A stretch of DNA of 51,330 bases, filler included, from Streblomastix strix (GCA_008636045.1; 3 parts of 3 records of this genome joined end to end with filler, not necessarily neighbours in it); one strand, 5' to 3'; positions 17,047 to 50,190 are shown, numbered from the whole stretch's first letter. Translations and numbers: made by a program. Notes: generated by a model not told the origin, from the letters alone.

Positions 17047-17146
17047 NNNNNNNNNNNNNNNNNNNNNNNNNNNNNNNNNNNNNNNNNNNNTTAATTAATT
17101 AANNNNNNNNNNNNNNNNNNNNNNNNNNNNNNNNNNNNNNNNNNNN
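17047..17146. other. Artificial contig linker (N44-TTAATTAATTAA-N44)
   Basis: 100-bp spacer with a six-frame stop cassette; flanking contigs are 17046 and 17044 bp. Confidence 0.97.
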
Positions 17147-24041: not shown

Positions 24042-24236
24042 TGTACTTGTATTTACTTATTTAAAAACTATCAATTTATATTTTTATTAATCAAAAATTT
24101 AAAATTGTTGATTATATTTATTTAGTTATATTTTATTTTATTAAATTTTAACCAGAAGCTTATATTCGTATTATCTTCACATTGATTCAATCCATTAGTT
24201 GCATATTTTTAATCTATTTTTTCTTTTTCTTTTATA

Positions 24237-25935: not shown

Positions 25936-26026
25936 TCGAATGCAAGCAAAAACTGATAATAAAAGAAAAGTATAGAAGTAAAATTGATTTATTTTATATT
26001 GAATGATCGACTTAAGATAAATTTGT

Positions 26027-27545: not shown

Positions 27546-28924
27546 TTTATATAAATTGAATTTGTCTACAAAGAAAATATAAAAAATAGAATTCAACAAC
27601 TATTATGAAAGGAATTTTAGAGTTTTGAAATATTAAATTTCAAAGTACGTTTAAAACATTAAATAATTATGAAACATAATTATTTATAATTTAATTGATA
27701 TATAATATCTCTAAAATTTAAATAAATATAACAAAGCATAATATTAATAATGTTAATACGATAGAAAAACTCGAAAAATTGAAATTTAAATATCCTTGTT
27801 ATTAGCAAAGTATATATCAGTGTCTTGATTCAAAAATTTAAATTTTTTTACAATCACTTCTATAAATAAGAATCAATTTTCTATTTCAAAGCTGAACTAA
27901 TAATTTCTTTTTGTAAATAAGAAAACAAAAGTAAAAATATATTTCGTTGGTAAAATGTACATAATTATTTATGAAGTTTATTGAAATACAATTGAAAGGG
28001 TTGGTGGAATGAATTAAATAACCCAAATTCAAGTAATTTTGAATATCAAATGGCATTTTTCATCTGGAAAAAGATCTTTCAATTTCGTTTTGTCAAAGAA
28101 ACCCTGAGTCTAGTATGCTCACCAAATTAATGCAAGTGCTACAAAGATGAGTAACTTATTCCCTCTATGAAAAATAGAAATTATTAGGGTTATTAAAAAA
28201 TAAAAATTAAATAGTTTTAAACAAACACCATCTGCTTCAATCCATCAACTACTGTTTACGACACGTCTACTGCAAATGGATGTTTCGGTTCGGAAGAGCA
28301 CATGTTTGGCAAATTCTGAAAAAGAAAAGAATGAAACAAAAAAATAAAGTCAAGAAATTGATAGTTTTCTAAATAATTATATACTTCAACAATTAAAAAA
28401 ATGAGCGTTTATTATTTAAGTTAAAATTTAAATATATTTGTAGTTACATGAAAAACGAACAAATTTATATTGTTTTAATTCACTAAGTATTAATGAAATT
28501 TCTGATAAATAAAATTTTAATTTTCTCATTTAAATAGAAGCATATATTTCGTAAAAATAATAAATTTTGTATTGCGAGTATAAAATATAACTGTTTATTG
28601 TAATATTAACTATTGTTTTGAATTTATTACGATTTTATTACGATGCTTCACGATCGGGCCCTTAATATATTAAAATTTTTAGATTTTAAATATAAAATTA
28701 CAAAATAATTGTAGTATTGCATTAGAATGACTAATTGGAACATTATATTTTTAATGTTATTAATAAAATATAAGCACAAGTAAAAAAATCAATTAATTTT
28801 ATAATTTTTTTGAATAGTTTCCATATAGAGATATGGAAAAGCAGAATAATATGAAATGTAAAACTGTTAAATTTATTAATTCAATGGGACGTTAATAAAT
28901 GATCAAAATTTCAATATCAATATC

Positions 28925-30260
28925 TGTAGTATATGATGGGGATTTATGCCCAACTACACGAAGTATTCAGTTTTTTAAAAAATCTCCACTCCAACATTTT
29001 ATAAGCTTTGACCTTACAATTTATAAAATTTTCTCACATCTGGCTAACGCATTCGTTCGAAAATATTATAGAATTGTTAGACCATCACTTACAAAATGAA
29101 TTATTATAAAAACTAATACCCTTAAAGTTACTGCATAAGTCACTTATAAATAATACTACTAATGTGCAAAATAAATAAAATATATCAACACCTTTATATA
29201 AAATAATTAAAATAAATAATTTGTAGGTTAAAAAAAGCTTTTTAAAAAATATCTCTGACAAATCACCTACATCAATTTATAATAATATATAAAACAAATA
29301 AAGGATATACATAATTTTTATAATAATTTTAGAATGGAGTTTTAACAAAAAATGTCATAGCCACAGACCGTTCCAGGTGTTCCGGGTGTTCTGAGTAAAA
29401 TAGGTTCTATGAAAAATGTCAGTCGATCCGTCAAAAAATTTTTCTTGATGAATGACTTATATAATTGGAATAAAATAATTTAATATATAATAAATGTAGT
29501 AATAAATAATAAAATTTATTGACAATACGGTTTCCAAAGTCGATAAAATAAAACTATAGGATTTTATAGGAAATTTAAATTTTCATTTTAAAAAACAATT
29601 TAACATTAACAATTTGTAAGAATAGTTCGAAAATAAAACTTTATCCTAATGGTATAAAATTTACTTGGATAATTTCACGAAATACCACTCTGAAAGAATA
29701 AAACAAACAATAAAGCCATAAGTAAAGCCAAACTAGGAACAATAGCCTAAGCAAATGGTAAATATATTTCGTAGTAAAATTTAAAACACAAATGATATAG
29801 TACAAGATATAAAAATAAAACCTTTAAAAAAATACTAAAGACCATATTTTTCACCAGAACTTGGAAGCTGGGAATTTGATTTTATTTTTGTAATGCACCA
29901 AACAATTAATAAAATTGTGTAATAATATTTGTTTTGCATTAATATTAATACCAAATTTTTAGTTGTATTTTCTTTAAAGGATAAAACAGCAAACGAACTA
30001 CTAAGATGTATAAAGTAGCTTATCAAAGACTAAAATGTTAATACCATACGTTCTGATGGTGAAGCGGCTTTAGGTAGCAAACAAATCAAGGAGTTTTTAA
30101 AAGAAAATAATATAATTTTTTTTTAATTCTTCACCTTTCATTAATAAAAATCGAGTTGTTGATTCAGTAATAAGAACAGTAAGAAACGCATTTGAAAATG
30201 ACTCTAAGCTAATGGCTAATAACAAATAAATATAGCAAATACATGGTAAAGTTGGTTAAT
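28925..30260 (+). mobile_element. Truncated end of a Polinton/Maverick: terminal repeat (~28925-29450) followed by an integrase remnant
   Basis: Begins TGTAGTATATGATGGGGATTTATGCCC; colinear with the reverse complement of 39530-40403, and the similarity stops at the (A/T)GTAGT terminus. Confidence 0.8.
29790..30245 (+). pseudogene. rve-family (retroviral-like) integrase core, frameshifted and truncated
   Basis: KPLKKYQRPYFSPELGSWEFDFIF...YLFCININTKFLVVFSLKDKTANELLRCI...NTIRSDGEAALGSKQIKEFLKENNI [frameshift in T-run 30116-30124] SSPFINKNRVVDSVIRTVRNAF. Confidence 0.8.
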
Positions 30261-31418
30261 GGGTAAAAAAAATAGCCTCTCCAAAAAGTCCAATTATATG
30301 TCCGGTGGGTCGTTTTTGAGTTATTAATAAAATAATGTTCTATGATATGAAACGCACAAATTGGCATAAAAATTTATAGACGCTAAATTGAAAGTTATCG
30401 AGAAATCTAACTTTTTTTTATTTTGCTTGAAATATTCACTTTAATGAATTAATGATTAAATATATATTAAATGTATTTAAATAAACATAAATAATTAAAT
30501 TAATAGTTTTAAATGAAAAATTATTTTAGATTGATGTTGTTTATTGATGGATTCAATAATCAAATTTTTTGGTGCATCATTCTTTTGATAGGTAATATAC
30601 CACTTCTCTTATTCTAAATATAATTTTTATTCATAAGCAAAAACAAATTGAAATAAATGACAATTACATCAAAATTATTTGTAGATCCTGCAGAATTATG
30701 ATGTAAATTACTGAACATTAAATTCCTTGTTTAACAAGTTCTCTTCTGTCAAACACTTCAAAAACACTAATAAATTTATAATTATATATTATTAATTTGT
30801 TTTACATAGAAAATATATTTATTAGCATAAACATGTCGAGAAAACCTGGCTGCAACTTAAAATTAACACGTTGACTCTCGCAATTTCATTAATTTATTAA
30901 ACATAGCATTTTTTCAACATTCACTTCATTTAATATTTAACTTGCATGTATAATACAATATTTTAAATATATTTATAATCGAACGCTTTTTTCATAAATT
31001 CTGCGATATCTCTGCTCCAAAAATAACTTAAGCATATTTGATAATATTTATTACCTTTCCCCCTGATATATATCAGTTTTCTAAAATATTGTAAATATTT
31101 AAACAATTAAATATGCCAAAATACCCGCATTTTTTTAACCAGGTCTTGAGCATATTGGATGGTATATTGCATTTAATTTACTTTTTTTGTGGGGCAGACC
31201 CCAAATTTTCATATTAACTTTTTTTGTTTCGCTCTGGAAACGTATTTCGCATTTTCTGAAATTGACAAACCGGACGGTTTTGGAAAGGCTATTATTTTTA
31301 CCCAATAACCAACGAAATTCAAATAATACATATATAATAAATACTTATATTTAATTATTGTTTAATTGTTTTTATTATAATTTTATTGATTATTAATTAT
31401 ATAAATATGATTGTGACT

Positions 31419-32007
31419 TCATTTTTTTTTCTTTTTTCCAGTGGCATCCTTTTTGCTATTTATTGCAACTCGTCGCTCATGCATAATTGGAGCTATAGCA
31501 TTAAGAAGTTAATTTTCTATTCAAATTTAAAAATAAATATAACATTAAATGATAATTAAAAAGAAAATTTGATGTACTGTTTCGAATATTCTCTTTAACA
31601 AAAGCTTTTACTTGTTTATCGCCTTCCAATCGTGCATATATTTATACACGCACCCTACCCTCCGAGAAAAAATCACGAGAATATTTCTTTTTTTCCTGGA
31701 GAAGAGCAAATAAGACTTTAAAAATAAAAATTTTAAAATTGTGAAAACTTCCACTCGTGTTTCTAATCCAACCTCTTTGCAAGCAGCAACAATCTCATTT
31801 ATTGTAGGGTTCTCAACAGCAATCTCTTTGTTCACTAATCTTCCTGTGGGGCACAAAAAATCAAGCAAAAAGAAAGAAAAAAAAAATCCACGCACCTTCG
31901 TGCTTCTTCTTAGTTGAATCTAAGTATGCAGGATATATGACATGCCAATGATATATCTCTGGAGCAGTTTTCAGCAAACCAGACTCTTCAGTTGTAATAA
32001 ATTCCAT
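31419..32007 (-). CDS. SRP19: Signal recognition particle 19 kDa protein (4 exons)
   Basis: WHVIYPAYLDSTKKKHEGRLVNKEIAVENPTINEI...EKKKYSRDFFSEGRVRVQI...KNQLLNAIA...GKKKKK*. Confidence 0.93.
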
Positions 32008-32314
32008 GTGATTATACAGCTTAATATAATGGTAATATTAAATACTTTAAACATCTATATTATTTGCAATATATATAATTCTAACTAGATCCGTGCGTTT
32101 GTGACAAACCGATAAGTCTTTTTTGATCTTGTCAGCCATTTGATTTTAGATATTTGATCTGAAAATATTTGTTAATGTACCATAAATATAATATTATTTA
32201 CTATTCGTTACGTTCAGTTTGTATATTATTCATATTGGTGTGAAATATAAATGGGCAAAGAATGTGTATGTAACTCTAATTATCAAAATAAAATACTTAC
32301 CATGAAGGGTATGT

Positions 32315-32530
32315 TCATGGAGGATTACTGGAGAAAACTTTGATATCACCATCAGCGCCTGCAGTCACAAGTATTGGATGTTGTGGATGAGCTACGATCT
32401 TGGTGATACTTTCATTGAATATTGGAGAAGAAGATGAAGAAGGCATTATGGGAGATGATATTAATATGGATGAAGGAGAAATAGAAGATTTCAATAATTA
32501 TTTCAATACTGATACAAATGACGATGCTTG
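32315..32530 (-). pseudogene. Orphan terminal WD40-repeat exon (gene fragment)
   Basis: NESITKIVAHPQHPILVTAGADGDIKVFSSNPP*; no upstream WD40 exons in the ~300 bp before the neighbouring kinase stop. Confidence 0.55.
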
Positions 32531-32848
32531 ATTGAAATTTTATTAAAAGAAAAGTCATTTATTATTATTTATTTAATTTTATAACATTTAGATAATAAAA
32601 TATTGAAATTTGAAAAATAAATTTACATTCCATTATTTTTATTTTTATTATAAATATTATAAAAAAGCTTAATAGAAAGAAGGAGAAATAACAGATATAT
32701 TAAACCTATCAATTAATCATTGTTAATAGAATAAACATGGTTAATTAAACATGCATTGTTGATTGCTTCTCTTTTTCTTTTATATCAGTTTGCTAATGTC
32801 ATTCATATTTTTTACAATTCTTTCAACAGTACACCATAAATTGCCATT

Positions 32849-34168
32849 TCATATCTTTGCCAAACAAGCAATTATTTCTGGAGTTTACATAATTTCATTG
32901 GTGGTTATTCTCTAACGTGGATCCTGAATAAATAAAAGGGAAAATAAAAAATAAATAATAAAATAATTTGAAATAATAATTATTTTATTTTCAACTTACC
33001 TTCACCAGCATCTTTAATATAAGTTTCCTCATGTTCTCTGGATAACGAAGTGGAAGTTGTCTTGGTTCGTTTTCAGCCACAAGTTTGAGGTTTGAAAGAA
33101 TGAAGTGATCTTCACCTTTATTCATGAATGGATGATATTGTGCAAGAAGTTCAAAAAGAATAATACCCAAGGCCCAGATATCTGACGAGAATCGTAACTC
33201 TAATTTATCTTTTAGCATACTTAATATATGATTATAAAGTAATTAATAAAACATATGATATTTTAAAAAAAATAGTTAATTAATGAATTGAAAATAAATA
33301 TTTAATAAAAGTTAATAACATAAATTTATTCTAAATATTTTTATTTCATACTCTTCCATTTTTAATCCTATGATGTTTTGCTACTATAATGGTTACAAGA
33401 GTTCAGGAGCTAAATATCGCCTGATCAATTATATATTATATTAGTAAAAAAAATTGTTAATAAATATAATAATAATTATTATTATTAAAAATAACCAAGA
33501 AAATCCGTTTGCAGTCGCATAAGTTGCTCCATTCTATAGCTTCCTAGCCAATCCAAAATCTCCTGGATAATTAAATCATGGATAAATAAATAAAATTAGA
33601 ATAAAATAATATTGAATAAACCAAGCTTGATTTTTCTGTCTCTTGATAACAAAACATTAGATGGTTTTAAATCTCCATGAATTATTCCATTAAAATGCAT
33701 CTGACTAATTGTAGATACCATCTGGGAAATAAAAGTCCAGGCATCCTAATCATTATATATATTGAATAGATTATAAATAAAATATAATAGTTTTAATAAT
33801 AAAAATACAAAAATTATTCTAATTTACCTCTTCAGAGATCATTTATCCACTTTTTTTCATATCTTCTATATATTAATGTAAGTCTCCACCTTCGCAATAT
33901 TCCATAATAAGAAACGCTTTAAATTCTTCTTCATCAACAAAGAAACCAAGAGGTTCGATTACATGAGAAAATGAATTTTGCGATTTCGATGATCTGTGAA
34001 ATATTTCATTAATTTCCAGAATAATTCTAACTTCACAATTAACCATATCTATTTATTTTGGTTTTCCATAATTCATCTCTTTTCGAGCCATTAGTTTACC
34101 TGATAGCTTTTCTTTCACGAGGCAGATTGTTCCAAAGCCACCAGAACCAATTTATCTCAAACATTGAA
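32849..34168 (-). CDS. NEK-like Ser/Thr protein kinase, 5' end cut by the contig edge
   Basis: IGSGGFGTICLV, MARKEM, FLIMEYCEGGDL, IIHGDLKPSNV, GDFGLAR, RYLAPE, SSDIWALGIILFELL, DPRQRITTNEIM; GT-AG introns; TGA stop. Confidence 0.9.
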
Positions 34169-34190
34169 CTATATTTAATATGAATAAAAA

Positions 34191-34290: not shown

Positions 34291-36000
34291 ATCCCTGCAA
34301 ATATATTAGCCATATAATTAAATAGGTATGAAATTAGAGATAAGGATGAGGGTTAAATAAATGGAAGGGTTAATTTTAATGCAAAGGCTAACCCTATAAC
34401 AGATAATAACAAAGATATGTAATAAGTTAATTAAAAATATTATGGTAAAACTGCTGATGGTTCAGAACATAGTGAACACTTGTACTTTTGGCTTGGATTT
34501 TCTACAGCTTGCGGACCCTTTAATTAGTTTGCAATATTACGAGATGCTTAAAATTTATGAAATACAGCAATATATGCGAGAGAGTAAGCAGTTATTTGTT
34601 CAAATTCATTAACAGATTTATGCACTAATAATAGCGTTTGTTTCTCACCACTCGAGAGTATCATCGCTGGAAAACGGCATTGAGGTATTTTTTTGGATTT
34701 TCCACTTAGTGATATAGATAAAGCAGCAGAATGAGGTACAGAATATTTTTATATGATTCCATATGATATAATTGTTAGCGGTGTTTTAGATTTGAACTAA
34801 TAAAACCCAATTATTAACATATTCCCCGTACTGACAAGAAACTTTGCATCATTATACTTATAGCTATGGATGTAGGATTTCCTTTAGAATTTAAAAATTG
34901 TGTGGCTAAATAAATCAGATACCATTTTTTAATCGTTATCTGGTTAATGCAATGATTACACCCGAGAAACCAGATATTGTTTATCTATAAAGTGAAAATG
35001 AAGATGTTTTAATATTATATGAATAATATGCTGTTAAGCAAGTTAATATGTAAAATGTTCCGAATACTGCAAAACTACCATAAAATTCAATTAGTTAAAT
35101 ATCAGATGGTAAATTCGAAGAGCTAGAAATATAAAATGTATGTTTTAATATAGAAAATGAAGAAGCAATTATTGAGATGATAAAAACATAAAGAATAATA
35201 AATTTCCCTACACAAGTTATATGGTCTTAACCTTCAAATTTCCCCTTCAGTGGTTTTTAAGCTGTATCTGGTAGTATGTAAAGTATAATGTCATTTGCTA
35301 ATATAAAGGCACTATTTATGACATTTGCCATGCCATAATATTCTACTTGGTTATTCCCAGTACAATTTTATAACTTTAATTTGGTTATTGATTAAAATAT
35401 TCAAATACCATAACCGAATAAAGCACTGATCCAAACAACTAATAGCTAAATGTTTGATTTTTCTGTTGATTAAGGTGTTGAAAGTGCTCCATCAGACCTA
35501 TGCCATTCATTTACTTTTGAAAATGTAAATGTTGATGATAAAAGTATATTTATGGATATGTTGATGATGGAGGTGATGTAACATCTACTGCCAATATATT
35601 TTATAACACTACATTATTCAATGGAAGTAAAGCCACAAAAACATTATACCCAAACAAGTATATGCTAGCGTGAAAGCTGGCAACTGATAACTCTTTTATG
35701 CATGGCTATAAATCTTCAAAAACTGGTGCTAGGACAAATATATAAGTGATTTTAAACGGCTATTTGACAAATGGAATTATAGATACTACATAATTAAATC
35801 CATCACAGAATTTAAATGATTTAAAGCAATTTATTGGTATGCGAAGCTATCCAGATCCACATCAGGTTGCGTTAACACCTATCATGCACTATTTATGTGA
35901 AGCATTTATTCGTATAGCTTTTGAAGATAACCCAGACCCCCAAGTATTAAGCATGGATGTTATAGGAGAAATAGGAAGTTCATCAATTAGATGCGGTTGA
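34291..36000 (+). pseudogene. Putative major capsid protein gene, copy 2 (5'-truncated, four internal TGA seen, two frameshifts near 34930 and 35545)
   Basis: FWLGFSTACGPFNQFAILRDAQNL*NTAIYAREQAVICSNSL...MSFANIKALFMTFAM...TPIMHYLCEAFIRIAFEDNPDPQVLSMDVIGEIGSSSIRCG*; same stop position as copy 1. Confidence 0.6.
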
Positions 36001-36202
36001 TAGGATTAATGGGATTAAAATAATAAATATTATTTTTGATAAAATAATGGTTTCCATTCATTTGCAAATCTTCGATTCGCAAGCATATTTGATTGCTGCC
36101 TCTTAAATGGTTTTAAATATTGCATGCCAATTTATGTTTAATTTTTCAAGGGAATATATTAAAATCTTGTTAAATCCGTCCATTTATTTATTTTTAAAAT
36201 TA

Positions 36203-37393
36203 TCAATTACCATCGAAGTTAATAAAATATGTACCATTAATTTACACATTTATTGGTGAAGGTAAATTTATAAGAGAATTTGAATTTATGATGACCTCGC
36301 CCCGCTGATTGATTACGCAATTGAGACATTAATTTATATTTTGTGATGAAGCCGTTAAATGCTACATGACCACACGGTCAGAAAAATGGGGGATAAATTC
36401 ATCATCTACGTATCTTACTATAACAGGGATACTAGTCGAACCCCCTTATGATGTCCAACGAAGGTATGCGCTAATATAAAAGATTCCGCTGTTACTCAAA
36501 ACTAAAGAACCTTGACTTAACCCGACGACATAATCACCTGCATGAAAAATTCCTGATTTTGCAGTTGTTGTACCAACGGTTTTACCATTAAATTTTAATA
36601 TCGTACAATCCCGATCTATATATATCCCTCCATTTATATTTTTATAATCATCATCTTTTTATATCTGGAAAGGTGCATCACGCAACCATGTTCCTGTACC
36701 GTCAAATTATGAAGAAATTACCCAACTATATTCTACAGTTGATACTCCACCAATTGACTAATAAATATTAGCACCTAAATATATATTACTCGGTTAACTT
36801 CCCATTCCTCTGTTTATTTTAATCCCAGCATCTTTTGTGTCTATTAGTAATGATGTCGGTTATAGGGTAAAATCACTTAAAGCGTATGGATTTTCTTTTG
36901 GTAAAAAATCATACACATCAGCAGTAGCGCCATTAGCTAATAGAATTTATTTATTTATACCATTAATTTTAACGAATTTTTCGGCAATAATAGGTTATAA
37001 AAATGTTTTGCTTCCGTTTACTGTTTGACTAGTATTTATATTTACAAAATAATTTATGTCTGATGTGTCACCATTAGCTAGAAAAAATTAATTGCTTACA
37101 TCATTATTTTTAACTAATATTTCAGCATCTATAGGCTATAAAACGTCTTTACTCCATTAATTACTTGATTGGTACGTAAATTTACATAATCAATTGAATT
37201 TCTGAAAAATTAACCCTAATTGTTGAAATATTTTATGATTTCGTTATCTTTTATTTACAATAGGAGTATTTTTTTACTTCGTCTAATTTTGCTATTCTTC
37301 CCGTATTTTCTATATTCTTTTTAATTCTTCTTTCTAAATTTTCAAATTGTCATCATCAAGTAGTGATAAATCAGAAGTTATTTAATCGTTCAT
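36203..37393 (-). pseudogene. Tail-fibre-like protein gene (~395 codons, two frameshifts)
   Basis: Tandem units YVNLRTNQVINGVKTF...QIFLANGD and FVNINTSQTVNGSKTFLQPI...QILLANGA, then a Gly/beta-rich region ending ...INQRGEVIINS...QINGTYFINFDGN*. Confidence 0.55.
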
Positions 37394-37983
37394 TTTAATT
37401 ATCCAAAAATAAGTCATATTATTCATTAACATAATAGTCTATGCAATTAATCAGATATTTAACCCCACTTTAGCCGTATTTATTATATTTTGTATTAAAT
37501 TATATTTATTCTACAGCTTCTTTTAATTCTCGGTATTTTACCCCAAAATCCCTGTTATCACATAATACCTTCATTAGTTCTGTATATTCTTTAATTATAT
37601 CGTCGATATGCTCATTGTTTCTTTTTTCAATCATTATATATACTTGTTATGGGTATTTATCAGGGTTATTTCCATATCTTTTTACCAACTTATAATATGG
37701 CTTATTATTTTTACTTAATGTATGTTAAATAAAAATTATCATAACATTAATAAATACGCTCTACATATTTTTCTTTTGGTATATTTTAGGGGTGATAGAG
37801 CAATTTACCTTTTACTATTTCAGTTTGTGAAAGCATTTTTATAGATAATAAAAATAATAAAAAATAAATTTGGATATAAAAATTTTCAAAAATCTTTATC
37901 TGTAATTTCTACCTCTTGTGCTTCACTTAAACGAATGAAGTCGCAATTTACTCGATAAAATTTTTTCAATAGAGTTATATTGC

Positions 37984-38612
37984 TCATTATCCAACACTTT
38001 TACAGATACATTTTTTATTAAAATATCTTATACTCTAATATGTTCTTTTTTCTTGAACTTCTTAGGTATGCAGGTATGGGGTTAAATAATTGCTTCCTCT
38101 AGTACTATTTCAACATCATTTTCATCATTCTATGTGATTAGTGCCCAAAATTTTATAAAATTTTCAGATGGAAAAACAAAATCATCACTTCTTTATCTAT
38201 ATGTAATAGTGTGCCAAATAACATCAATGAAAAACTTTTATACTATGAGATTCAGATGCGATAAGTATATACTTTTTGGCTATTATTTTGCTAACTATTG
38301 GATTGCTTCTTCTGGTTCCACTTATGCAGTTGTTCTATCTACATCTTTATATTTATTTATATTGTATAAACGTTTTAGCGTTTCTGGACCTTCGGGCTAT
38401 TTTCTGTGGAGTACATTTTTGTTTTCGTTTTCAAAAACTTTTTATTGTGTAATTTCTAAGTCTGCAGGCATTATTTTTATACGATTAATAGCTTCATCGA
38501 TTAGTTATAGTCTGACCTTGTCCTCATCTGTAAGCTCATTTTTCTTAATATCTGCCATTTATTTCTTACTTTTCGACATTCTTACTTGGTTTCTTTCAAT
38601 ACCCTTTATCAT
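37984..38612 (-). CDS. Polinton ORF of unknown function (3' part possibly frameshifted)
   Basis: Intronless frame MIKGIERNQVRMSKSKKQMADIKKNELTDEDKVRLQLIDEAI...; explains the antisense 177-aa track ORF. Confidence 0.5.
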
Positions 38613-38636
38613 TTTATTTATTTATAAAATATTAAA

Positions 38637-39299
38637 ATGGAATTATCGCATGCGCTTAAGAATTTGATAGAAAACGGGACAAATATAGAATATTTTGATA
38701 AGGATTATGTTGTATAGATTAACAAACAAATAAAGGTATATGAGGACGGCAGAAAGCAACTATGAAAATTGACACAAAAATAGTAAAATAAGCTATTGCT
38801 ATAAGCTCGTGGACGTAGAGAAATAAAGAAAAAACTATCAATATAGTCTATATAGAAATAGGAAGTAAATGATGAAGAAGATTTTTTAAACAATAAATAA
38901 TAGGAAGAAAGACATAGAAATATATAGTATGATATGAATGAAAGCGATGATGAAACAATCAGCTAAAGCGAAAGACCCGAAAGGCCAATAAAACATTAGT
39001 TTGAGGCTAAACAAGCTCATAAAAAAGCTATAAAAACATCAAAATAGCCATAAATCAACTATACTAATCCATTACTTGATTTTGTAGAATTAATTCGTTT
39101 AAGAACTGAAAATACTTTTATAAAGCAATAGCATTAAGACGCTATAAAATAAATAGAGAAATACAAACAAAAAGTAAAACGTTATAAGCAACCAAAATAG
39201 ACACTTGAAAAAGAAGAATAACAAGAGATTCAACTCGAGCTTTTATAATAAAATTATTAACCTGAATAATAATTTAGCGAATATGACCTATATAATTGA
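38637..39299 (+). pseudogene. Polinton ORF of unknown function, charged/coiled-coil, one internal TGA
   Basis: MELSHALKNLIENGTNIEYFDKDYVVQINKQIKVYEDGRKQL*KLTQ...EYDLYN*. Confidence 0.5.
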
Positions 39300-39327
39300 T
39301 AAAATTTATTTTTAACTAATTATAAAA

Positions 39328-39534
39328 ATGGAAGAATTTTAAAGTCTTTTAAAAGATTAAGAACCTAAACTATAACAAATGCTTTAACAACTAAATAAAG
39401 AAATAAAAGATTTTAACATAGAGCTAAAGAAATTATAAGTTTCAACTTTACGTTTTGCACTTAGCAATATACATGATATAATGAAAACATTAGAGCCATT
39501 ATATGGAAGTTAAAAATATAATGCAAAATTATGA
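39328..39534 (+). CDS. Small coiled-coil Polinton ORF (68 aa)
   Basis: MEEFQSLLKDQEPKLQQMLQQLNKEIKDFNIELKKLQ...YNAKL*. Confidence 0.4.
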
Positions 39535-40403
39535 GAAATTTTTTTTGACAGATTGGGAGTCTAGCAGTACTTTTTTATGACAACTTTTTACCCGGTCCAC
39601 ATGATCCTCCTGGGGCAGTCCGTGGCTATGGCATTTTGCTTCAAAACTCATTGATAAAATTATTATAATAAATTATGTGTATTCATTATTTGTTATTATA
39701 TGGGCAATTTTCATCACAACAAATAGTCTATAAATTTTTTTGTATTTAAATTTAAAATAATTTTATTAGTAAAAGTCACAAATTATATATATATGTCAAA
39801 ACTGCCTGGACAAAAAATATTTTTTTGTTTAAAAATTTAAAAATTCAAATATTTTATTTTTTTTTTAAGAGTACGATATTTAACTAAATTTATATATAAT
39901 TAAATATAATTAACATTCACAATTTTAAAAATAGTAAACAAATTTAAATTGCATCATTGATTGTAAAGTCGAAAAAAAATTGATTTTAAAATATCTATTT
40001 TATGTCTAGGCTGTTTTGACATATATATAATTTGTGACTTTTACTACTAAAATTATTTTAAAATAATATATTAAAAAATTAATAGACTATTGGTTGTGAT
40101 GAAAAATGGCCATATATTATTATAAATTGATAGCTTGACTTATTGGAGATATTTTTTTTAAAAAGCTTTTTTAACCTACAAATTATTTATTTTAATTATT
40201 TTATGTAAAGGGTTGATATAGGGAATTTATTTTAATTATTTTATATATGAAATTTATGCTTCAACTTCAAGGGTATTAGTCTTTATAAAAAATCATGAAA
40301 TTCATTTTATAGGATAAAACTTATAAAATTGTTGGAGTGGAGATTTTTTTATAAAACTGAATACTTTTTGAAGTTGGGGCATAAATCCCCTACATTTACT
40401 ACT
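39530..40403 (-). repeat. Polinton terminal (inverted) repeat, interrupted by a MITE
   Basis: Reverse complement matches 28925-29450, e.g. AAAATCTCCACTCCAACA, TTTGTAGGTTAAAAAAGCTTTTTAAAAAA, ATG[C/T]CATAGCCAC[G/A]GAC. Confidence 0.8.
39702..40111. mobile_element. 410-bp MITE with ~120-bp TIRs and an ATAT target-site duplication
   Basis: GGGCAATTTTCATCACAAC...GTTGTGATGAAAAATGGCC; ATAT at 39698-39701 and 40112-40115; empty site at ~29281-29295. Confidence 0.85.
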
Positions 40404-41301
40404 TATATTAGGTTAAGTGATTAAATATGGTAATTTGAAATTAGTACAGTACATTTATAAAAGTTATTGAATGGATTTTAGTAAATTGATTTTATTTGTA
40501 AATATTTCACGAAAATAATTAGATTGGGAAGAAGAAAATATTATATTTAATCTCGAATGGGCAAAATTTCGCTTTTATTTTTTAGATCTGATGTTAATAG
40601 TTTGCTAGGATGCAAATATAATTTAAATGGAAATATTCTCATGTATGTGCAAAATTAGTCATAAAAATAAAATTTTTAAAGTAAGTAATAGTTCGTGAAT
40701 GTTAGCAGGTGTAATTTATATTTTAAAAATTTTTAAAAACAATTCTCATAAATAATTCAGTTCAAAATTAGTTATATATGAATTTATTTATTTGTAAAAT
40801 ATGACATAAAATTAGAAAATTATTTCAAAATAAATTAAAATTAACTTGCACCGTAGCAAGCAACAAAATAAAAAAAATCTGCATTTACAGCGAACGCATA
40901 AAAGGAATGCTTCAATAATGTTCAAATAAAATCAAATGATAAATATAATATAATATTAATTATAAAAAAAAATACTGAGTTATCAACATAGCGCAAAAGT
41001 TGCAAAATAAATAAAAAAATCAAAAATTGTTTTAAACTTTAATCAAAGAATAAAATTATTGAAATGTGTTCAAAATTAGTTAGAAATAAAGTATCAATAA
41101 TAAAATTACATTAAAAATAGGGAAAAAAGTGTAAAAAATTCTGCAGCAGTCTGTTTAGTAATTAGAGCTTATTTTCACGTAACCCCTGAGAATTTTATTA
41201 AAATATTAATAAAAATCAGTTTAAGTTGATAAAAAAATATATATATTTATAAAATGTATAAAAATTAAATTAATTACAGCACTGTAGTAAATCATCACAT
41301 T

Positions 41302-41740
41302 TAGAATGATACAAACTTGGTTGGGTTGGGTCGGGTCAGGTATTTTTTTTTTAAAGCCAAATTTGGATTGTAACAAGAATTACGCAGTTGCAAAGTAGTA
41401 ATTTATAAATTTATTTTGACATAAATTGAGTAAAAATATAAATTTATAAAATTTTAATAAATTTAGATTACAATATAATTGATTGAGTGAAAAAATGACC
41501 GACCCATTGCGACCCGCATTAATTTTTAGAAAAAAATATTATTTTTGATAGAATTCATTTATTTTATTCAAATGTATATAAACATATTATATATGAATAT
41601 TAAAACACATTAAATATATTACTAATCAGGTCTAACTCATTAAAAAAAAATATTTTTTTTTTTTATTTTTTCATTTTGGGTCGTTTTTTCTTGTATGTGT
41701 GGGTCGATAAGGATCTAGGTGGTTGGGTTGGCATCCCCTA
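41302..41740. repeat. Possible degenerate non-autonomous hAT-like element
   Basis: Clustered GGGTCG/CGACCC motifs, right end CATCCCCTA resembling the hAT TIR consensus TAGGGATG; its first ~95 bp recur at 48821-48910. Confidence 0.35.
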
Positions 41741-41940
41741 GTTTCATCTATATATCAGTATGTATTCAACAAACAATGTTGCAACATATGAGATCACTTG
41801 GCATAGTTCAATTTCAAATAAATTTAACAAAATTTTCTAATATTAATGAAGTGCAAATAACAGAATTAATTTATCAAATATCAATGTTTTATACAAGTAG
41901 AGATTATTTTATTACCATACAAGAACTTCAATTCGCATAC

Positions 41941-44649
41941 TCATTATGATATTTTCTTATCAGCTGCATCCTTTGGTGTCTTTGGATCCCACCAATGTGT
42001 TCCCCACTTTATCTCTTCTTTTCCAGTCAAGTCTGGCAATTCGTTTGATATCTTCACACTTTTATCCACGATCTCAACCGATGAACCAGCGTAGAACCTT
42101 GAGACCTTAATTGTATTTAAAAAAAATAATTTAAAAATGATTTAATATTTGATTTCAATCAATAAATTTCTTTATTTCTCAGTTCATACGCAGAATCTGA
42201 ATGTCGAAGGAATATTTGTAATGACAACGTCTTGAACTTTCTTATTCACAGTGATCGTCATAAATGGCGCTGTCTCTTTAATATCAAGCACTTTTTAATG
42301 TTTATCTTTCGCAACATTTTCATCCTAATCTAATACTATTCGTTTTGGTTCCTTCTTTATTGGAAGATAGACATCCAATGTGACAAGGACGTTGTTTTCA
42401 CACTTATCAATCTGTTTAATTGAGTACATATCTTGGATGATATACCCACTGATGATATAATGTGATAATTAAAAAGGATAATTAACATATGAATTAAGAT
42501 TGTATAATAAAGAAGTAATAAATAATATTATTATCAACATCGAGTATTTTAAATTTAATATATTATATAAAAATATACTTGAGTCCATTGTAGCCTATGC
42601 TTTCTATTATCAAAAAATGAATAATAATTTAAAGAAAAAATGATGATTAAAGATAAATGTTACACAAATGAAAATTAGTTATTAATTAAAGAATAAATAA
42701 ATAAATATTTTTTTTGCTCATTAATAATATAAGTTAGAATTTTTGCATACATTCATTTGAACCAGGGAAGAATCCGCTTTATCCAAGGAAAAATTTATTT
42801 TAGGCGTTAGGAAAAGGATCGACGATACCAAAGACTGAAATATTTTATTAAAATTGAATATAACAATAATTAGAAGACAAATGCCAAGAAAATGTTGAAA
42901 ATTCGAATTTTTTATGATAAAATAATTTATGAAATAAATATCTATTTCATTAATTAAATGTTGTCTTACCTCTAAATGCTTCATTCTCTTAACCTCTGAA
43001 AATGACAGTAAAATGTGCATGCTGTGCTTGATCTTTCATCTAAAAATATCAAAATTATTAACAAATATTAGAAAAAAACGAAAAAAATAACGTTTAAAAT
43101 GTAAAAGCATATTATATATTGAAAAATTATATTTAAAAATAGAATTATTTATACGTATACATTTATACTAGGGTTCATTATCACTGTAGTTTTACAGTCA
43201 GCTTGAATAATAAAAATATATGAATAATATAAAAATAATAATTAATATTAATAATAGAATTATTTAAATCTACAAAAAAAATACAATTAAAATATAAGCA
43301 AACCTCCATCACGCATTTTGAACAGAGCCAAATATGGAGGTTGTTCAGTTCCTTCCTAACCTTCCTCAATTCTTATCGGCAAAACTTCTGATTTTGGCTG
43401 AATTCCTTCCTAAGAACCTAATGGTGGCAGGCGATCACAAGGAACGATTTTGTAGACATGCGATGATTCTTGATCAATTTTTATGAGATTTTCAATTGCT
43501 TCATCCAACCAAGCAGGATTTTTCGGATTTGACGGACCTTCATGTTTGATGTATTTTTATATTTTCGGTTCTGCAAGCAGTTCCAGAATTGTTGGGCGCT
43601 TTTTATCATCCTAGTTAAAATATAATTGAGTTAAATTAAATTTGAAAATAATTTATTAATTAAATAAAAACAATAATTCTTTCTCAATCCAAACATACTC
43701 TATTAACCATAGCTAATATCAATTTTTGCAATTCTTCTTTATAATTAGCTGGAATTTAGTTTGCAAATTATTAGTGCAATATATTATCACTCAACTAAAT
43801 ATATCCTTCATGTGTGAATGGTTATGCACCAGTAAGAACTTCAAATATAGAAATGCCAATTCCATATATATCTGATCGTCTTGAATAGCCCCTTCCTTGA
43901 ATACGCTCTGGGCATTCATACATTAGTGTGCCTACATTTGAATATGCAGATTATTAAGCATAGTCGAGCTATTTTGAAGTTCCAAAGTCACCAACCTGAA
44001 ATTTTATAATAAATAATTACTAATAAAAAATATAAATATAATTTTCATACAACAATTGTATTATCTTCCCTCAAGAATATGTTGGTTGGTTTAACGTCCC
44101 GGTGAATTATGCGCTTGCTTTGAATGACTGCAAAGGCTTATACAAGCTGGGAAAGATATTTCCAAGCATCCTATAATAATAGTAATATATTTTATCAAAA
44201 ATTAATTAAAGTTAGAAATATAAACACACTTCTTCTGATATATACAGATTATCCTTAGGACGACTTTTATACAAATTTGTAAGATTTCCATTCTCACATA
44301 ATTCCGAGATAATGTAGAACTCATCATTTTCTTTGAACTTAAAAATAAAATAAGAGAAAATAATTATAAAATTATTAAAAAATAATATAATATAATAAAA
44401 TACTGCTTCCACTGCTTTCAAAACATAAGGGCAATCAGGTATAGTCTAAATGAGCTCAAATTCATGTTTAAATGTTAATTCATTTATGCCCTTTTGATTT
44501 AACTCTTTAAGTGCATAAAGTTTCTCGTCACCTTATTTCTTGGCTTTAAATACTTTACCAAATCCCCCCTCCCCAAGCTTTCCAAGTTTTTCGTACCCAT
44601 GAATGATCACAACTTTCGCCCCTTTACCATCATGCTAAGTTTCTAACAT
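41941..44649 (-). CDS. NEK-like Ser/Thr kinase with a C-terminal SPRY-like domain
   Basis: MLETQHDGKGAKVVIIHGYEKLGKLGEGGFGKVF, YALKEL, ISELCENGNL, IIHRDVKPTNIF, GDFG, GTLMYECPE, RSDIYGIG, DDKKRPTILELL; spliced in frame to FGIVDP, SIGYNGLNGYIIQ, VVITNIPSTFRFCVSRFYAGSSVEIV; TGA at 41941-41943. Confidence 0.85.
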
Positions 44650-45316
44650 TCTTTAGAAGATAAAAGAGAAAAAATAAATTAAAAAGATAAAAAAAGAAAG
44701 AGAATTTGAAAGGTTGACCTTCATTTAAACTCTGTTATTTTTTAAATTTGTAAAAATGATCATTTTAAATTGAAATCTAAACCCTAATTTGAATAAGTAA
44801 AATGGAAAATAGTAAAAACAGTTTATTTAGCCATAATCATTCAGCAAATAATACTTTTTTAACTGTATTAACTAGTCAATAATTTTTACATATTACTTAA
44901 TATGCTATTTGATTTTTGTATAATTGTGCTATAGAGAAAATCAATAATTATTACAATCATGTGTACATTTCACATATTGTTGTAAATATATTTTGATTGT
45001 ATACCCAACATGATTGTAAAACAATTATTGTATATAATAAGATATAAAAAACAAAATTTAAAGCTGTAGAATGTAAATAAGTATCGTTTTATGTATTAAC
45101 TTAATATATATATATTGTTTATGTATTTAAATCACGTTCAACATATTTAACCCAAATTTAAACTTAAAAGTAGTATAATTTTACTTTTTTATCCAATTTA
45201 AAGATTTTTTCATAATAATCTAAAAAATGACATTTTTTTACGACTACTTCATTTTTTAATAATTAAATCAATTTTTAATATATTTAGTTATATTTTACAT
45301 AGAAATATTCAGTGAA

Positions 45317-48000
45317 ATGGCTGAAAATGTATATGAGGAAACTTAAGATGAAGATGATTAATTGAATTTTGGCATGATTCCACAAAAATTGAGCAAAGAT
45401 GAAACAGAGAAATAATTTCAAGTTAGCAATGATGATACTCCACCTGAAAAGCGACGTTTAATTGATGATGGTGAAATTTTAGATGAAGAACTAAGTCCTG
45501 TTATGGTGGACACTGATTTTTGCCTATTTTCATAGTGAATTAGATAGCCCTTGTTGAATATTTCAAACACTAATTAAATCGATTTTTTTCTAGATATTAG
45601 TAATAGTGGAGAGGCAGCGCTTGCAAGATTAAAATATTTTTGGTATTTTCTACATATTTATATTACAAAATTTTAGATAATTTTATTATTGTAATTTGTT
45701 AAATATATATCAATAAATAAATTATTTGAATGAAAATTTAATCATATTTTGTTCGATTGCAGTCAAAAGGTTGATTTTTGAGCAAAAAATTAAAAAATGT
45801 TGAATTTATGTTAATTTGAATAAAAATCGAAACATTTGGATTGGAAAGTTAATAAGACATTGGTGGAATTCAATGCCATTTATCAAATATATTGGAATCA
45901 ATGATAAAAGAAAAGCTATCCATGAAAGAAATTTGTTAGAATGTCTGTGTTTTGATTTAGAATAATGATTATGCTAAGTTTTTTGCAAAATAGTTCGTTA
46001 AAAGAAGATGTTTCATAAAATCTGTTATTTTACAACCCCAAAACTATATTATAATTACTAAATTAAACCAATAATCAAACCAAACTTTATTAGCCAGAGA
46101 AGGTCTCATTTTTTTCTTCAACATCATCTTTATAATTTGTAGAGTTACTATTGCAAACATCATCTATTCCAATAAAAGAATATAAAATTAATGAAAAAAA
46201 AACATTAAAAGTACGTAATTATAAAACAAATAAAAAATTACTCAAATTTAAATATCTTCATGCGTTATTCTTAGATCAGCTGTTCAAATCTAGATTGATA
46301 AAAAAATTTTAATTTACACACATTTCCATTTTGAATTACATTAAAGCAAATATGTCACAATATCAAATATCTTAACGATTTCATTCTTCAAATAAGCAAG
46401 AAAATAGCTATGTTCGTTTCATTAATCACATTTAGATCCTAGCGAGCACAATGTTTGAATTGCAACACAAATTTGATGGCCTGAAAATGCTAGAAAACAA
46501 TCATCTAAAAATAAATATTTCAACTGGAATGAATAGTGAAGATAATGGTTTGATTTGAAGATTATTTATTTTCAAATTCAAAATATTTTCACTTCAAATT
46601 TTAACTACTAAATATTAATGTTTGAGATATCCCTCATAGAATATTTTGATTTATTTTGAACATTCATTTAATTGAAACAGTTTTAAATATTTTCATTCAG
46701 GAATACTCAGAATTGATAATTAAATATGATCCACTTAAGGATGTAATATAACCGATTTAGCAAGTTTAAAAGATAAGTTATTTACTAATATATCATCTAA
46801 AAGTGATATCTATAAATTATCTTTAAATATATCTATTAATGAAGTTCAAATACTAAATTAATTTTTTTTATTTTTATTCTTCAAAATAATTTTTTTTTTA
46901 ATTTTAATACACTTCTTATAGGATCGAGTATTTAGATAAATAAAGTAACTAAAAAAATTAATTTCTACTGTCTTTGAATTGTTTTGATTTTGTCAGATTA
47001 TATCAACTCATTATAATTTATTTTATGTAGCCAAATGTTCACTCAAAAAAATAATATTGAAGTAGGTTTTATTCAATTTAATTTAATTTCTGTTATTTAG
47101 TTAAATGTTTAAAATGAAATTAAATTTCAATCAAACTTAAAATTAAATTATTTTATATTAATTATTATAAATTATATTATGAAACATATATTTATGATTC
47201 AAAAATTTATAAATAATCATATATCACTTTCTTCCCATCAATTTATTGAATTGTTTGATATATATCAAATGTTGATGGATATGAAATTTCGGCAAATTGT
47301 ATCCTACGAACTTGATAAATATTATTTTTATAATAATTACAATTATGTTAGAGATATATCTGGAATTAAAAGATAAATTTACCTAGGTTTGAAATTCTCT
47401 GTTTCAATTACAATCTGTTATTCAATGTAATAAGAGATATACCTATATAATTTGTTCACATTCAGATCTTGAACAGCGTCCTACATATCGAATTAACTCT
47501 TTTAAGTTTCAACCCTTGTTTCTCTGTGAGCAAGTACAATTTTTTTTATTTATTAGAAAATTTATTGTATTTGATTTAATTTATCTTTGATTAATTTTAC
47601 TTCATTATTACATACAACTATATTAGTGTTTAACTAACTCTCATCGATATATATTGCTCGCTACTCACCGTATTTATACTTATTTTCTATTTAATTGTTC
47701 ATTTTTACATTTTTTTATTAATAACTATAATTATTATAGATTTCTTTGCTAAATACATATTTCAGACAATTTGGTTCTCAGAAATCATTTTTTTTCTGAT
47801 TAATTTTTTTTATTTATAAATTATTTATTTAATTTTATCATTTTTGTTCTAACATTTTTGTTGGTATTTATTAATAATCATGGACAATTTACAACTGAAA
47901 CTTTGAAAATTGCTTATTTGGAGCGATTATTTGCTTCTTTAATGTGGAATATTTTACGCCTTTATTATTTGTCCAATTAAATGTCAAAGTTATAAAATTT
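45317..48000 (+). pseudogene. Heavily decayed multi-exon gene of unknown origin
   Basis: Acidic start MAENVYEETQDEDDQLNFGMIPQKL...PPEKRRL..., then TGA stops and broken frames. Confidence 0.3.
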
Positions 48001-49969: not shown

Positions 49970-50190
49970 GGAATTTTTTAGTTAATCAGTCATTTGTTCA
50001 AAAATTAAATTAAATACTAAATGTCCATCGTGATGAGACTCACCCAATTATTCATAAAGAATTAAATTTTATTTATAATTCTGTAAATTTATTGATTGGT
50101 TAGCGTGGCAATGGTAAAACATACAATGCCTTCAAAGAGTTAATTAAATTAAGCCAATTGATGAAACATTGTCATACACTGTTCATATAG
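49970..50190 (+). pseudogene. N-terminal fragment of an A32/FtsK-like DNA packaging ATPase (Polinton type)
   Basis: HPIIHKELNFIYNSVNLLIGQRGNGKTYNAFKELIKLSQL; Walker A GQRGNGKT at 50098-50121, with its Gln encoded by TAG. Confidence 0.65.

Follow-up and report, generated by a model that had tools for sequence, protein, structure and literature searches.

The Polinton/Maverick gene set was reportedly set out by Kapitonov and Jurka in 2006 and by Pritham and colleagues in 2007, for example in Trichomonas vaginalis. Tetrahymena reads TAA and TAG as glutamine. Streblomastix strix, a protist of the termite gut, is an oxymonad and not a ciliate. In Tetrahymena thermophila, the endogenous Tlr elements encode a capsid and bear an integrase (Krupovic et al. 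2014, PMC4028283). In S. strix itself, capsid genes of endogenous viruses use TAA and TAG for glutamine, and 820 capsid hits were counted in assembly SNRW01 (Bellas et al. 2023, PNAS, PMC10120064). These S. strix capsids are about 32% identical to those of Trichomonas, and fall in a 'Metamonada group' of PLV/Maverick type that joins S. strix with parabasalids.

We analysed a window of 51,330 nucleotides, meaning the whole stretch of DNA, made of three contigs (1-17046, 17147-34190, and 34291-51330) with runs of N as spacers. Contig 3 starts within a repeated block of 6.1 kb that ends sharply at 40402. It contains the 3' 570 codons of a predicted capsid gene, a fibre-like gene, a gene of what we call the 218-aa family, and further ORFs. 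Very probably, this block is what remains of an endogenous DNA virus, integrated and then decayed, whose family is present at high copy number in S. strix or a very close relative. The block has a predicted double-jelly-roll capsid gene and uses the TAA/TAG=Gln code, and its shared terminus links it to a likely rve-type integrase. In this form, the original prediction of an endogenous, DNA-virus-like family that encodes a capsid, has a high copy number, and follows the host's code is supported. Element DNA amounts to 8-9 kb of the window in total, and represents parts of an element only. The features are as follows.

22092-24041, minus strand: predicted major capsid protein gene, copy B, full length
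28926-29377, plus strand: second copy of the terminal region, interior to the right (alignment, depth step)
29452-30250, plus strand: likely rve-type integrase gene, broken (weak Pfam rve match)
30251-31313, no strand: MITE-like insertion of 1063 bp with 36-nt terminal inverted repeats
34291-36000, plus strand: predicted major capsid protein gene, copy A, P0018 subfamily (tblastn to P0018, frame and TGA mapping)
36203-37341, minus strand: fibre-like gene, convergent with the capsid gene (translation, repeated motif)
37374-37922, minus strand: 183-codon ORF, open under table 6
37889-38579, minus strand: conserved element gene of the 218-aa family (S. strix relatives)
38766-39534, plus strand: two overlapping open frames of 177 and 198 codons, towards the terminus (translation)
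39609-40402, minus strand: element terminal region with the terminus at 40402, homologous to 28926-29377
39694-40119, no strand: foldback (palindromic) insertion inside the terminal region (self inverted repeat, 73% over 450 nt)
49954-50256, plus strand: 101-codon ORF with a Walker-A-like GQRGNGKT (motif only)

Two copies of a predicted capsid gene

A second copy of the roughly 650-aa gene had been noted at 22092-24041. These coordinates are exact; copy B has 649 codons and a stop. Copy A spans amino acids 90-658, the first 89 codons being lost at the contig start, and has its stop codon at 35998-36000. The two are copies of one gene, with 63.5% nucleotide identity across 1516 nt, and 47-49% amino acid identity in the coding frame. 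Both match S. strix proteins at E=0 in tblastn searches; copy B is 82% identical to family member P0001, and copy A, in three frame segments, is 75-81% identical to P0018 (tblastn). Of 7,996 scored candidates, at least 182 are relatives at E<=1e-3. The 120 listed all carry the name S. strix, with a best identity of 82%. Genes of the family encode 649-658 amino acids, and intact full-length members of 649-651 amino acids are present elsewhere in S. strix. It had been suggested that code-unaware gene calling would miss the family. That concern is superseded; the NCBI annotation of S. strix already includes the proteins, some of which are entered in UniRef as 'Major capsid protein'.

The structure of P0001 was modelled with AF2 (AlphaFold) from a diverse alignment of 23 sequences (pLDDT 72.6, pTM 0.79). 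Foldseek searches of the PDB with this model returned the capsids of PBCV-1 (1.6e-12), mavirus (6.9e-11), and Sputnik (7.4e-10). All PDB matches listed are double-jelly-roll capsid or scaffold proteins, including those of faustovirus, ASFV (p72), and vaccinia (D13). Similarly, matches in BFVD were adomavirus LO7 and the capsids of virophages, adintoviruses, and giant viruses. The nearest Atlas clusters, with scores of 0.95-0.98, were from Preaxostyla and Parabasalia, followed by viral Capsid_N/Capsid_NCLDV and the Sputnik MCP. The best structural matches (PDB entries 6g43-6g45, 3j26, and 8h2i for mavirus, Sputnik, and PBCV-1) have a Foldseek probability of 1.00 and E values of 1e-12 to 1e-9, but sequence identity is only 7-10% and TM is 0.37-0.48. 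The protein is also 130-240 residues longer than most of these capsids. The model thus identifies the 649-aa family protein as a predicted double-jelly-roll major capsid protein. We know of no dependence of the S. strix element on a giant virus.

Copy B has a summed contig depth of 1047-4313, compared with 26 in the adjoining left bin, and an exact single-copy contig spans 21417-21945, beside the gene. We conclude that copy B is a lone gene with single-copy flanks.

Genetic code and probable decay

Element ORFs had been described as open only if TAA and TAG are read as glutamine. The code is indeed needed, with 34 in-frame TAA or TAG codons in copy B and 30 in copy A, but the genes are not open under table 6 either, owing to TGAs and frameshifts. 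The reading as glutamine agrees with conservation. In nine distant relatives of copy B (21-29% identity), glutamine occupies 51 of 281 cells (18.1%) at the TAA/TAG sites of copy B, compared with 4.0% at the other 599 positions, a 4.5-fold enrichment. Furthermore, glutamine codon use in the element is similar to that of host ORFs. SRP19 and kinase genes, written in the same code, share contigs with element pieces. This favours integration of the pieces in host DNA.

Copy A has four in-frame TGAs (at 34558, 34681, 34732, and 35671), with frameshifts near 34920-34931 and near 35547-35551, and copy B has six TGAs. Were TGA a sense codon, such as one for tryptophan, a code with all three stops reassigned would leave the capsid genes open. 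Two TGAs do fall at the same aligned positions in both copies, and one in copy B lies opposite a tryptophan in copy A. However, the six TGA sites of copy B correspond to G, W, W, R, W, and R in 10 intact relatives, and not to one residue. The relatives annotated with table 6 run to full length and have no TGA, host ORFs of up to 2425 codons also lack it, and copy A is frameshifted as well. We consider a sense TGA extremely improbable.

Damage is not confined to the capsid genes. In sum, there are 10 TGAs, at least five frameshifts, the 1063-bp insertion, and the foldback insertion. We conclude that, as assembled, no element gene in the window is intact, the breaks being in-frame TGAs, frameshifts, the contig end, or the MITE-like insertion. 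The proposal that the lineage forms virions is not upheld by these broken copies, although intact 649-aa ORFs exist elsewhere in S. strix.

Some of the breaks may be assembly errors. Taken further, the element family would be alive and the window copies intact, with TGAs and frameshifts being artefacts of short-read assembly from many near-identical copies in amplified single-cell DNA. There is precedent, since polishing can remove premature stops from endogenous PLVs, and a warning against such errors has been given (Bellas et al. 2023, PMC10120064); intact 649-aa relatives exist too. At the two sites examined, 23828 and 35546, no exact contig backs the window version. Here, X1 or X2 contigs, which come only from other family copies about 91-93% identical, have a sense codon, GGA, at 23826-23828 or an extra G at 35546. 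Against this, the contigs with another reading at these sites represent other copies, with 9 to 24 further differences per 122-270 nt. The damage is also of many kinds and affects all genes; the 1063-bp insertion ends the integrase gene beside single-copy DNA, and the single-copy flanks of copy B show a solitary gene rather than a collapsed element. It is unlikely that artefacts account for the damage, and we favour genuine decay of integrated copies.

The contig-3 block, its terminus and a likely integrase

High copy number, as predicted, applies to the whole contig-3 block and not just to the capsid gene with its many relatives. All 30 bins across 34291-40420 have a summed depth of 138-7288 in run X1, where exact single pieces have 12-33 and the contig-2 background is 26-66. 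Depth is uneven, at 4,000-20,000 in the terminal region, 1,000-4,300 in the capsid gene, and 150-460 in the fibre-like gene. Hence, a more abundant derivative, or a different element, may carry the terminus as well.

Next to the capsid gene, the fibre-like gene has an open part of 328 codons (36206-37189) with 14 TAA/TAG and no TGA; its 5' part is in another frame, indicating one frameshift. The encoded repeats are of the type 'NQ.v.G.KtF..P..A..FVK.nG....LLANG...D', with no sequence match in Pfam or the PDB. Summed contig depth in this gene (156-460) is above the contig-2 background. The 183-codon ORF, which lies between the fibre-like and 218-aa genes and may be a gene in its own right, had no family match when scanned as part of a 402-aa query. 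For the 218-aa family, 67 of 183 candidates matched, all 67 from S. strix, the best with 80% identity; the family has no Atlas match. The window gene is frameshifted near 37962-37969, about 25 codons before its end, and the last 27 residues are in another frame (tblastn). Since 218-aa and capsid locus tags are 1-2 apart in four cases (EZS28_024121/024122, 003583/003584, 025551/025553, and 025946/025948), each pair being on contigs of equal length, the two genes form a conserved neighbourhood. The 177- and 198-codon frames gave chance-level Pfam matches only, and summed depth here is up to 7288.

A terminal repeat starting AGTAGT, with a diverged copy at 28925, had been noted. There is a terminus common to 28926 and 40402, but AGTAGT occurs in one copy only; the shared part begins GTAGTA, preceded by A in contig 3 and T in contig 2. 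The 23-nt motif common to the termini, GTAGTAWATGNNGGGGATTTATG, is found in the window only at 28926-28948 (plus strand) and 40402-40380 (minus strand). These two matches compare with 0.01 expected, and none of 100 shuffles reached two. Likeness extends inward for ~450 nt in three blocks (86%, 79%, and 81%). Farther inward, the similarity is lost and each copy runs on into a different gene. At the contig-2 terminus, depth steps from 60 (27958-28526) to 20239 (29096-29664). The contig-2 terminus copy, where the alignment has a gap, lacks the foldback insertion, as do other copies from run X1, in which contigs skip it with junctions 39668>40112, 39699>40169, and 39701>40167. One terminal sequence thus ties the capsid block of contig 3 to the likely integrase of contig 2. 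Because no element in the window has both ends on one contig, we only infer that the terminal repeat is inverted.

An rve integrase had been noted after the contig-2 terminus. An rve-like ORF does start at 29452, but it is frameshifted and its Pfam match (E 3.7e-5, 24.4 bits) is below the cut-off of 32.6. The frameshift is near 30090-30119, and the gene is cut at 30250 by the inserted element. It has four relatives, which share the motifs RPYFSP..GSWE.D, YLFCININTKFL, and IRGDGE, together with conserved D...D motifs. All four are metagenome proteins, none is from S. strix, and one is also a weak rve match. A PDB profile search with the ORF gave two matches, both named 'Integrase' and both non-significant (E 0.58 and 0.87). 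The MITE-like insertion that follows has arms at 30251-30286 and 31278-31313 that are 92% complementary, and a summed depth of 16691-19120. Thereafter, host DNA is single copy (exact contig 31279-32306, depth 9).

Could the terminus and integrase be a separate DNA transposon, or a derived MITE family, that merely lies beside a capsid relic in contig 3? Depth in the terminal region is 5-20 times as high as in the capsid gene and about 50 times as high as in the fibre-like gene. In addition, the integrase relatives are missing from the S. strix annotation, where the capsid and 218-aa genes have many, and nested insertions are common in the window DNA. Conversely, the contig-3 repeat is unbroken from capsid gene to terminus, with none of 30 bins at background, and past ~450 nt the terminus copies lead into different genes, like two ends of one element. 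Elements that spawn MITEs also usually have a high copy number of terminal repeats. A separate transposon seems improbable to us, and one integrated virus family remains our preferred reading.

For that family, the two termini would be the left end, with the integrase, and the right end, with capsid and fibre, of one element type having inverted repeats of ~450 bp. The ancestor may have been a polinton-like or Maverick-like virus, its genome packaged in an icosahedral capsid, that entered the chromosome through the element's own integrase. Point mutation, small indels, and two small non-autonomous element insertions would then have caused decay, such that the window copies probably no longer produce protein. 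Of the seven conserved tryptophan codons of copy B, four are now TGA or a glutamine codon.

Polinton hallmarks and known lineages

Like Polintons/Mavericks, the element has a predicted double-jelly-roll capsid and compact intronless genes, and is integrated in chromosomes at high copy number. The likely rve-type integrase close to an end and the long terminal repeats would be further points in common. In contrast, the 8-9 kb of element DNA in the window show no pPolB, Ulp1/adenovirus-type protease, A32/FtsK ATPase, or penton, and the terminus starts GTAGTA. Pfam scans covered the 105 ORFs of at least 140 amino acids in contigs 2 and 3, out of 158 in the whole window. Among these 105, there was no protein-primed family B DNA polymerase (pPolB), adenovirus/Ulp1-type maturation (cysteine) protease, or FtsK/A32-type packaging ATPase, and no ORF matched a penton (single-jelly-roll minor capsid) family. 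These absences concern the partial element of the window and not the whole family. The lack of a visible pPolB or protease had been noted before. Membership of the Polintons/Mavericks proper is not borne out by what the window contains.

A Walker-A ATPase fragment had also been proposed near 50100. The motif of this 101-codon ORF arises at chance level (28 of 100 simulated sequences), and there is no family match at E<=1. The ORF lies 9.5 kb past the terminus, beyond a host kinase gene, and we do not count it as part of the element.

Tlr elements resemble the family in joining capsid and integrase (PMC4028283). They too reside in a host with the TAA/TAG=Gln code, and their genes follow it. They differ in having a ciliate host, from another supergroup than oxymonads, and are likened by features and not by sequence. 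The 'Metamonada group' agrees in species, code, high copy number, and double-jelly-roll capsid, and in having many copies on short contigs, with stops (PMC10120064). We conclude that the window copies are decayed relics of a kind already known since 2023, the capsid-bearing S. strix viruses in this code. The S. strix capsids of Bellas et al. (KAA6394011.1, KAA6381728.1, and KAA6401509.1) are 562 amino acids long or aligned to residue 550-553, compared with 649-658 amino acids here. The examined part of their SI contains none of ten locus tags and six sequence motifs taken from the 649-aa family. This family may represent a second lineage or else be included in the 820 hits. As a lead only on grouping with the Trichomonas vaginalis Maverick capsid and the published S. 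strix proteins, the second-ranked Atlas cluster, with 522 members and a score of 0.97, is from Parabasalia.

We tentatively raise a further possibility, which is more doubtful than not. The 649-aa family could be a second oxymonad polinton-like lineage, distinct from the 562-aa capsids and with its own fibre and 218-aa partner genes. It may still form virions, since intact capsid ORFs survive, and its genes would be unreadable outside TAA/TAG=Gln hosts. If true, the lineage would be a virus locked to the genetic code of its host.

The repeated block and its terminus

The three contigs extend over positions 1-17046, 17147-34190 and 34291-51330, with N spacers between. The finding described here is the first 6.1 kb of contig 3. 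Across the window, G+C content is 16-41%, mostly 20-30%, and there are no long ORFs unless TAA and TAG are sense codons, with TGA the sole stop. Features discussed are as follows.

22092-24041, minus strand: capsid gene, copy B
30251-31313: MITE-like element of 1063 bp, the 36-nt terminal inverted repeats of which are 92% complementary; this element interrupts the candidate integrase gene
31524-31970, minus strand: SRP19, a host-type gene in the same code (Pfam)
32994-33575, minus strand: protein kinase, a host-type gene in the same code (Pfam)
34291-36000, plus strand: capsid gene, copy A
36206-37189, minus strand: fibre-like ORF with a repeated motif, convergent with and downstream of the capsid gene; its 5' start is in another frame
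37889-38579, minus strand: 218-aa gene
38766-39534: two overlapping frames that run into the terminal region
44074-44940, minus strand: protein kinase, a host-type gene in the same code (Pfam)

Contigs from two public sequencing runs, X1 and X2, were aligned to the window and their depths summed. A third run, X3, yielded no aligned contig, and the sequencing runs listed included no RNA data set containing this DNA. Run X1, labelled as a termite gut metagenome, contains one third of the words in the block, and parts of both contigs occur in it exactly. Its depth was 138-7288 in all 30 bins of 34291-40420, where exact single pieces have 12-33; in contig 2, single-copy DNA has a depth of 26-66. 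Since all 30 bins are above single-copy depth, we conclude that the whole block is repeated DNA. Depth is uneven, being lowest in the fibre-like region and highest in the terminal region.

After the fibre-like ORF come a 183-codon ORF and then the 218-aa gene, the last 27 codons of which are shifted to another frame. Among 183 candidates, 67 were relatives of the 218-aa gene. All 67 are from S. strix, and they are 133-363 aa long (mostly ~200-250 aa). An Atlas search with this family returned nothing. On four contigs, of matching lengths, locus tags of these relatives are one or two away from those of capsid genes (tag pairs EZS28_024121/024122, 003583/003584, 025551/025553 and 025946/025948). 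Judged by these tags, synteny of the capsid and 218-aa genes is conserved, as in the window.

The block ends in a terminal region with a second copy in contig 2. Here, 28919-29009, 29096-29290 and 29287-29377 match 40409-40316, 40296-40112 and 39701-39609, respectively, at 79-86% identity (blastn). Just two sites carry the terminus motif GTAGTAWATGNNGGGGATTTATG, namely 28926-28948 (plus strand) and 40402-40380 (minus strand). Against these two matches, 0.01 are expected, and two were reached in 0 of 100 shuffles. The original prediction was of a terminus starting 5'-AGTAGT. One copy has this sequence but the other has T, in place of A, before GTAGTA. The two termini would be opposite ends of a single type of element, bounded by inverted repeats of ~450 bp. 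Inside the terminal region, 39694-40119 is a foldback of ~425 bp, forming an inverted repeat with itself at 73% identity. The foldback is absent from the contig 2 terminus, is skipped by three X1 contigs, and is a nested insertion.

A capsid family of S. strix

Of 7,996 candidates scored against the capsid-like protein, at least 182 were relatives at E<=1e-3. The best is full length (649 aa) and 82% identical; some UniRef entries are named 'Major capsid protein'. Because the NCBI name for 120/120 of the relatives listed is Streblomastix strix, these sequences identify the host of the family as the oxymonad S. strix or a very close relative. A ciliate host, suggested at first by the AT-rich DNA and the code, was rejected on the same grounds. 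Pfam searches identified no family for the capsid proteins or their distant relatives; the fibre-like gene, 218-aa gene and other ORFs were likewise without a match. In PDB sequence searches, neither the capsid profile nor the fibre-like gene had a match, and related loci sought in viral contigs and metagenome contigs were not found.

When 1.84 billion representatives were searched with a profile, 214 relatives were returned at E<=1e-3, mostly fragments. Around ten are full-length distant relatives, with 22-30% identity, from Logan, ENA, JGI and NCBI records; their contigs reach ~22 kb. Using an alignment of 32 S. strix paralogs alone, AF2 produced an unusable model (pLDDT 34.5). With the distant relatives added, the model for P0001, a full-length S. 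strix member, had pLDDT 72.6 and pTM 0.79. In Foldseek searches with this model, the top of both PDB and BFVD consisted only of double-jelly-roll capsid-type proteins. The PDB matches were PBCV-1 (1.6e-12), mavirus (6.9e-11) and Sputnik (7.4e-10), together with EhV-201, grouper iridovirus, faustovirus, ASFV p72 and vaccinia D13. Matches in BFVD were adomavirus LO7 and virophage, adintovirus and giant-virus capsids. TM-scores were moderate (0.37-0.48). The language-model Atlas, as a lead, is consistent with a capsid fold. We conclude that the predicted structure of the 649-aa family shows a double-jelly-roll capsid fold.

Two further observations concern relatives. First, P0149, P0203, P0207, P0225 and others, all full length and 22-30% identical, are on contigs of 10-22 kb from metagenome or run assemblies; they could come from other hosts, as free or as endogenous relatives. 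Second, P0103 (S. strix, 1057 aa) combines a capsid relative and an HNH_3 endonuclease domain in one annotated protein (Pfam E 3.1e-8). Either a homing endonuclease has inserted into, or next to, a capsid gene, or the gene model is fused.

Endogenous capsid-encoding DNA viruses are a large share of protist genomes. In Bellas, Hackl et al. 2023 (PMC10120064), S. strix belongs to a 'Metamonada group' of endogenous virus capsids that was seeded from Trichomonas. These authors also state that endogenous viral elements of S. strix use TAA/TAG=Gln. Their SI lists 820 capsid matches in the S. strix assembly. Hence, an S. strix endogenous virus in a TAA/TAG=Gln code, the headline of the original prediction, is already published (PMC10120064). 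For the S. strix capsids named there, the length is 562 aa or the alignment extends to residue 550-553, and identity to Trichomonas is ~32%. By length, the window family differs, at 649 aa. Ten of its locus tags and six of its motifs are absent from the part of the SI text searched, where a control tag occurs 378 times. The 649-aa family may be a second S. strix capsid lineage or part of the 820 matches. A literature search for Streblomastix capsid, Polinton or Maverick elements found no other paper.

A viral lineage in a reassigned code is a record of long virus-host co-residence, and shows how a virus can be confined by a change of code. This point is already published for S. strix. The addition made by the window is modest: the anatomy of one element end (capsid, fibre-like gene, 218-aa gene and terminal repeat), a terminus-based link to a probable integrase, evidence for decay and nested small transposons, and a hint of a second capsid lineage in S. 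strix.

Decay and genetic code of the capsid copies

Copy B runs from 24041 to 22092 (649 codons plus stop), exactly as first predicted for the second copy of the large gene. When the contigs were aligned against each other, 22116-23585 matched the reverse strand at 35976-34486, with 63.5% identity across 1516 nt (blastn). Protein identity between copies A and B is 47-49% in the coding frame, compared with 26-43% in other frame pairs. Hence, part of their divergence arose under selection on that frame. In a six-frame comparison of 21.9-24.2 kb with contig 3, the capsid gene was the sole shared part. Copy B stands alone: within the gene, depth is 1047-4313, against 26 in the adjoining left bin, and there is an exact single-copy contig at 21417-21945.

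The ORFs were originally described as open only if TAA and TAG encode Gln. These codons must indeed be sense but, under table 6, copy B still has six in-frame TGAs. Copy A has four, with two frame changes (near 34920-34931 and 35547-35551), and its first 89 codons are missing at the contig start. TGA as a sense codon was tried, using tables 6, 27 and TGA=X. This was ruled out by ten intact relatives, which have G, W, W, R, W and R at the six copy B positions. Since these residues are mixed, the TGAs are single-base nonsense changes and not a code. Across both copies, the nonsense changes concentrate on Trp codons. Seven Trp columns are conserved in the family; in copy B, three of these are TGA and another is a Gln codon. 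Two TGAs are at the same aligned positions in both copies (34558 and 35671 in copy A share Trp positions with 23511 and 22419 in copy B). Recurrent G>A change, or chance, could explain this pattern.

At two break sites, the sole X1 or X2 contigs are other copies, with a sense codon or an extra base. Because other copies differ in this way at these sites, and premature stops of such kind can be assembly errors (Bellas et al. 2023, PMC10120064), part of the damage could be an assembly artefact. The insertions and single-copy flanks could not. The feature is real, and of a known kind, and the window copies are decayed. They would be dead relics, eroded by point mutations, indels and the insertion of two small transposons.

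Gln is encoded in copy B by 34 TAA/TAG and 10 CAA/CAG codons, and host ORFs are much alike. In nine distant relatives, Gln is the commonest residue at those 34 positions, filling 51 of 281 aligned cells (18.1%), compared with 4.0% of 4,969 cells elsewhere. The alignments support TAA/TAG=Gln in the viral capsid gene. Our data show a capsid-encoding, high-copy, S. strix-specific family, in the host's code, with a defined terminus and joined to host genes on the same contigs. The capsid fold, S. strix relatives, block depth, Gln at TAA/TAG and host genes on the contigs thus uphold the prediction of an endogenous, high-copy capsid-virus family.

A candidate integrase in contig 2 and other Polinton hallmarks

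Depth leaps from ~60 to 20,239 at 28926. As predicted, this terminus copy is followed by an ORF, but its match to an rve integrase is weak (E 3.7e-5) and, at 24.4 bits, below the Pfam cut-off of 32.6. The candidate has four relatives, all metagenome proteins and none named S. strix. All five share RPYFSP..GSWE.D, YLFCININTKFL and IRGDGE, and also NRVVD.VIRT, which is in a second frame in the window. A PDB sequence search with the integrase alone gave one chance match. The gene has a frame change near 30090-30119 and is cut at 30250 by the 1063-bp element, which has the highest depth in contig 2 (16,691-19,120). Because single-copy host DNA directly abuts this element, a deletion may have accompanied its insertion.

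Consistent with the original prediction that no pPolB or protease is visible, Pfam polymerase, protease, ATPase and capsid families were absent from the 105 ORFs of at least 140 aa in contigs 2 and 3 (the whole window has 158 such ORFs). An ATPase fragment had been proposed near 50100. The motif concerned, GQRGNGKT, is in a 101-codon ORF, 9.5 kb past the terminus and beyond a host kinase gene. This ORF matches no family at E<=1, and a Walker-A-type motif is present in 28 of 100 simulated sequences. We rejected the ATPase, since its motif is at chance level. Polinton membership beyond the capsid, probable integrase and terminal repeat is unproven. The ancestor would have been a polinton-like virus, integrated by its rve integrase.

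Other parts of the window have their own peculiarities. In contig 2, 17486-18663 contains long open frames in both orientations, has the depth of single-copy DNA and matches nothing in Pfam. G+C is 0.41 in 18001-19000, compared with 0.16-0.31 in other bins of contigs 2 and 3. On the minus strand, 1688-8965 and 9543-13706 are table-6 ORFs of 2425 and 1387 codons, free of TGA, and presumably host genes. Tandem-like repeats are found inside the long minus-strand ORFs, at ~9935-11450.
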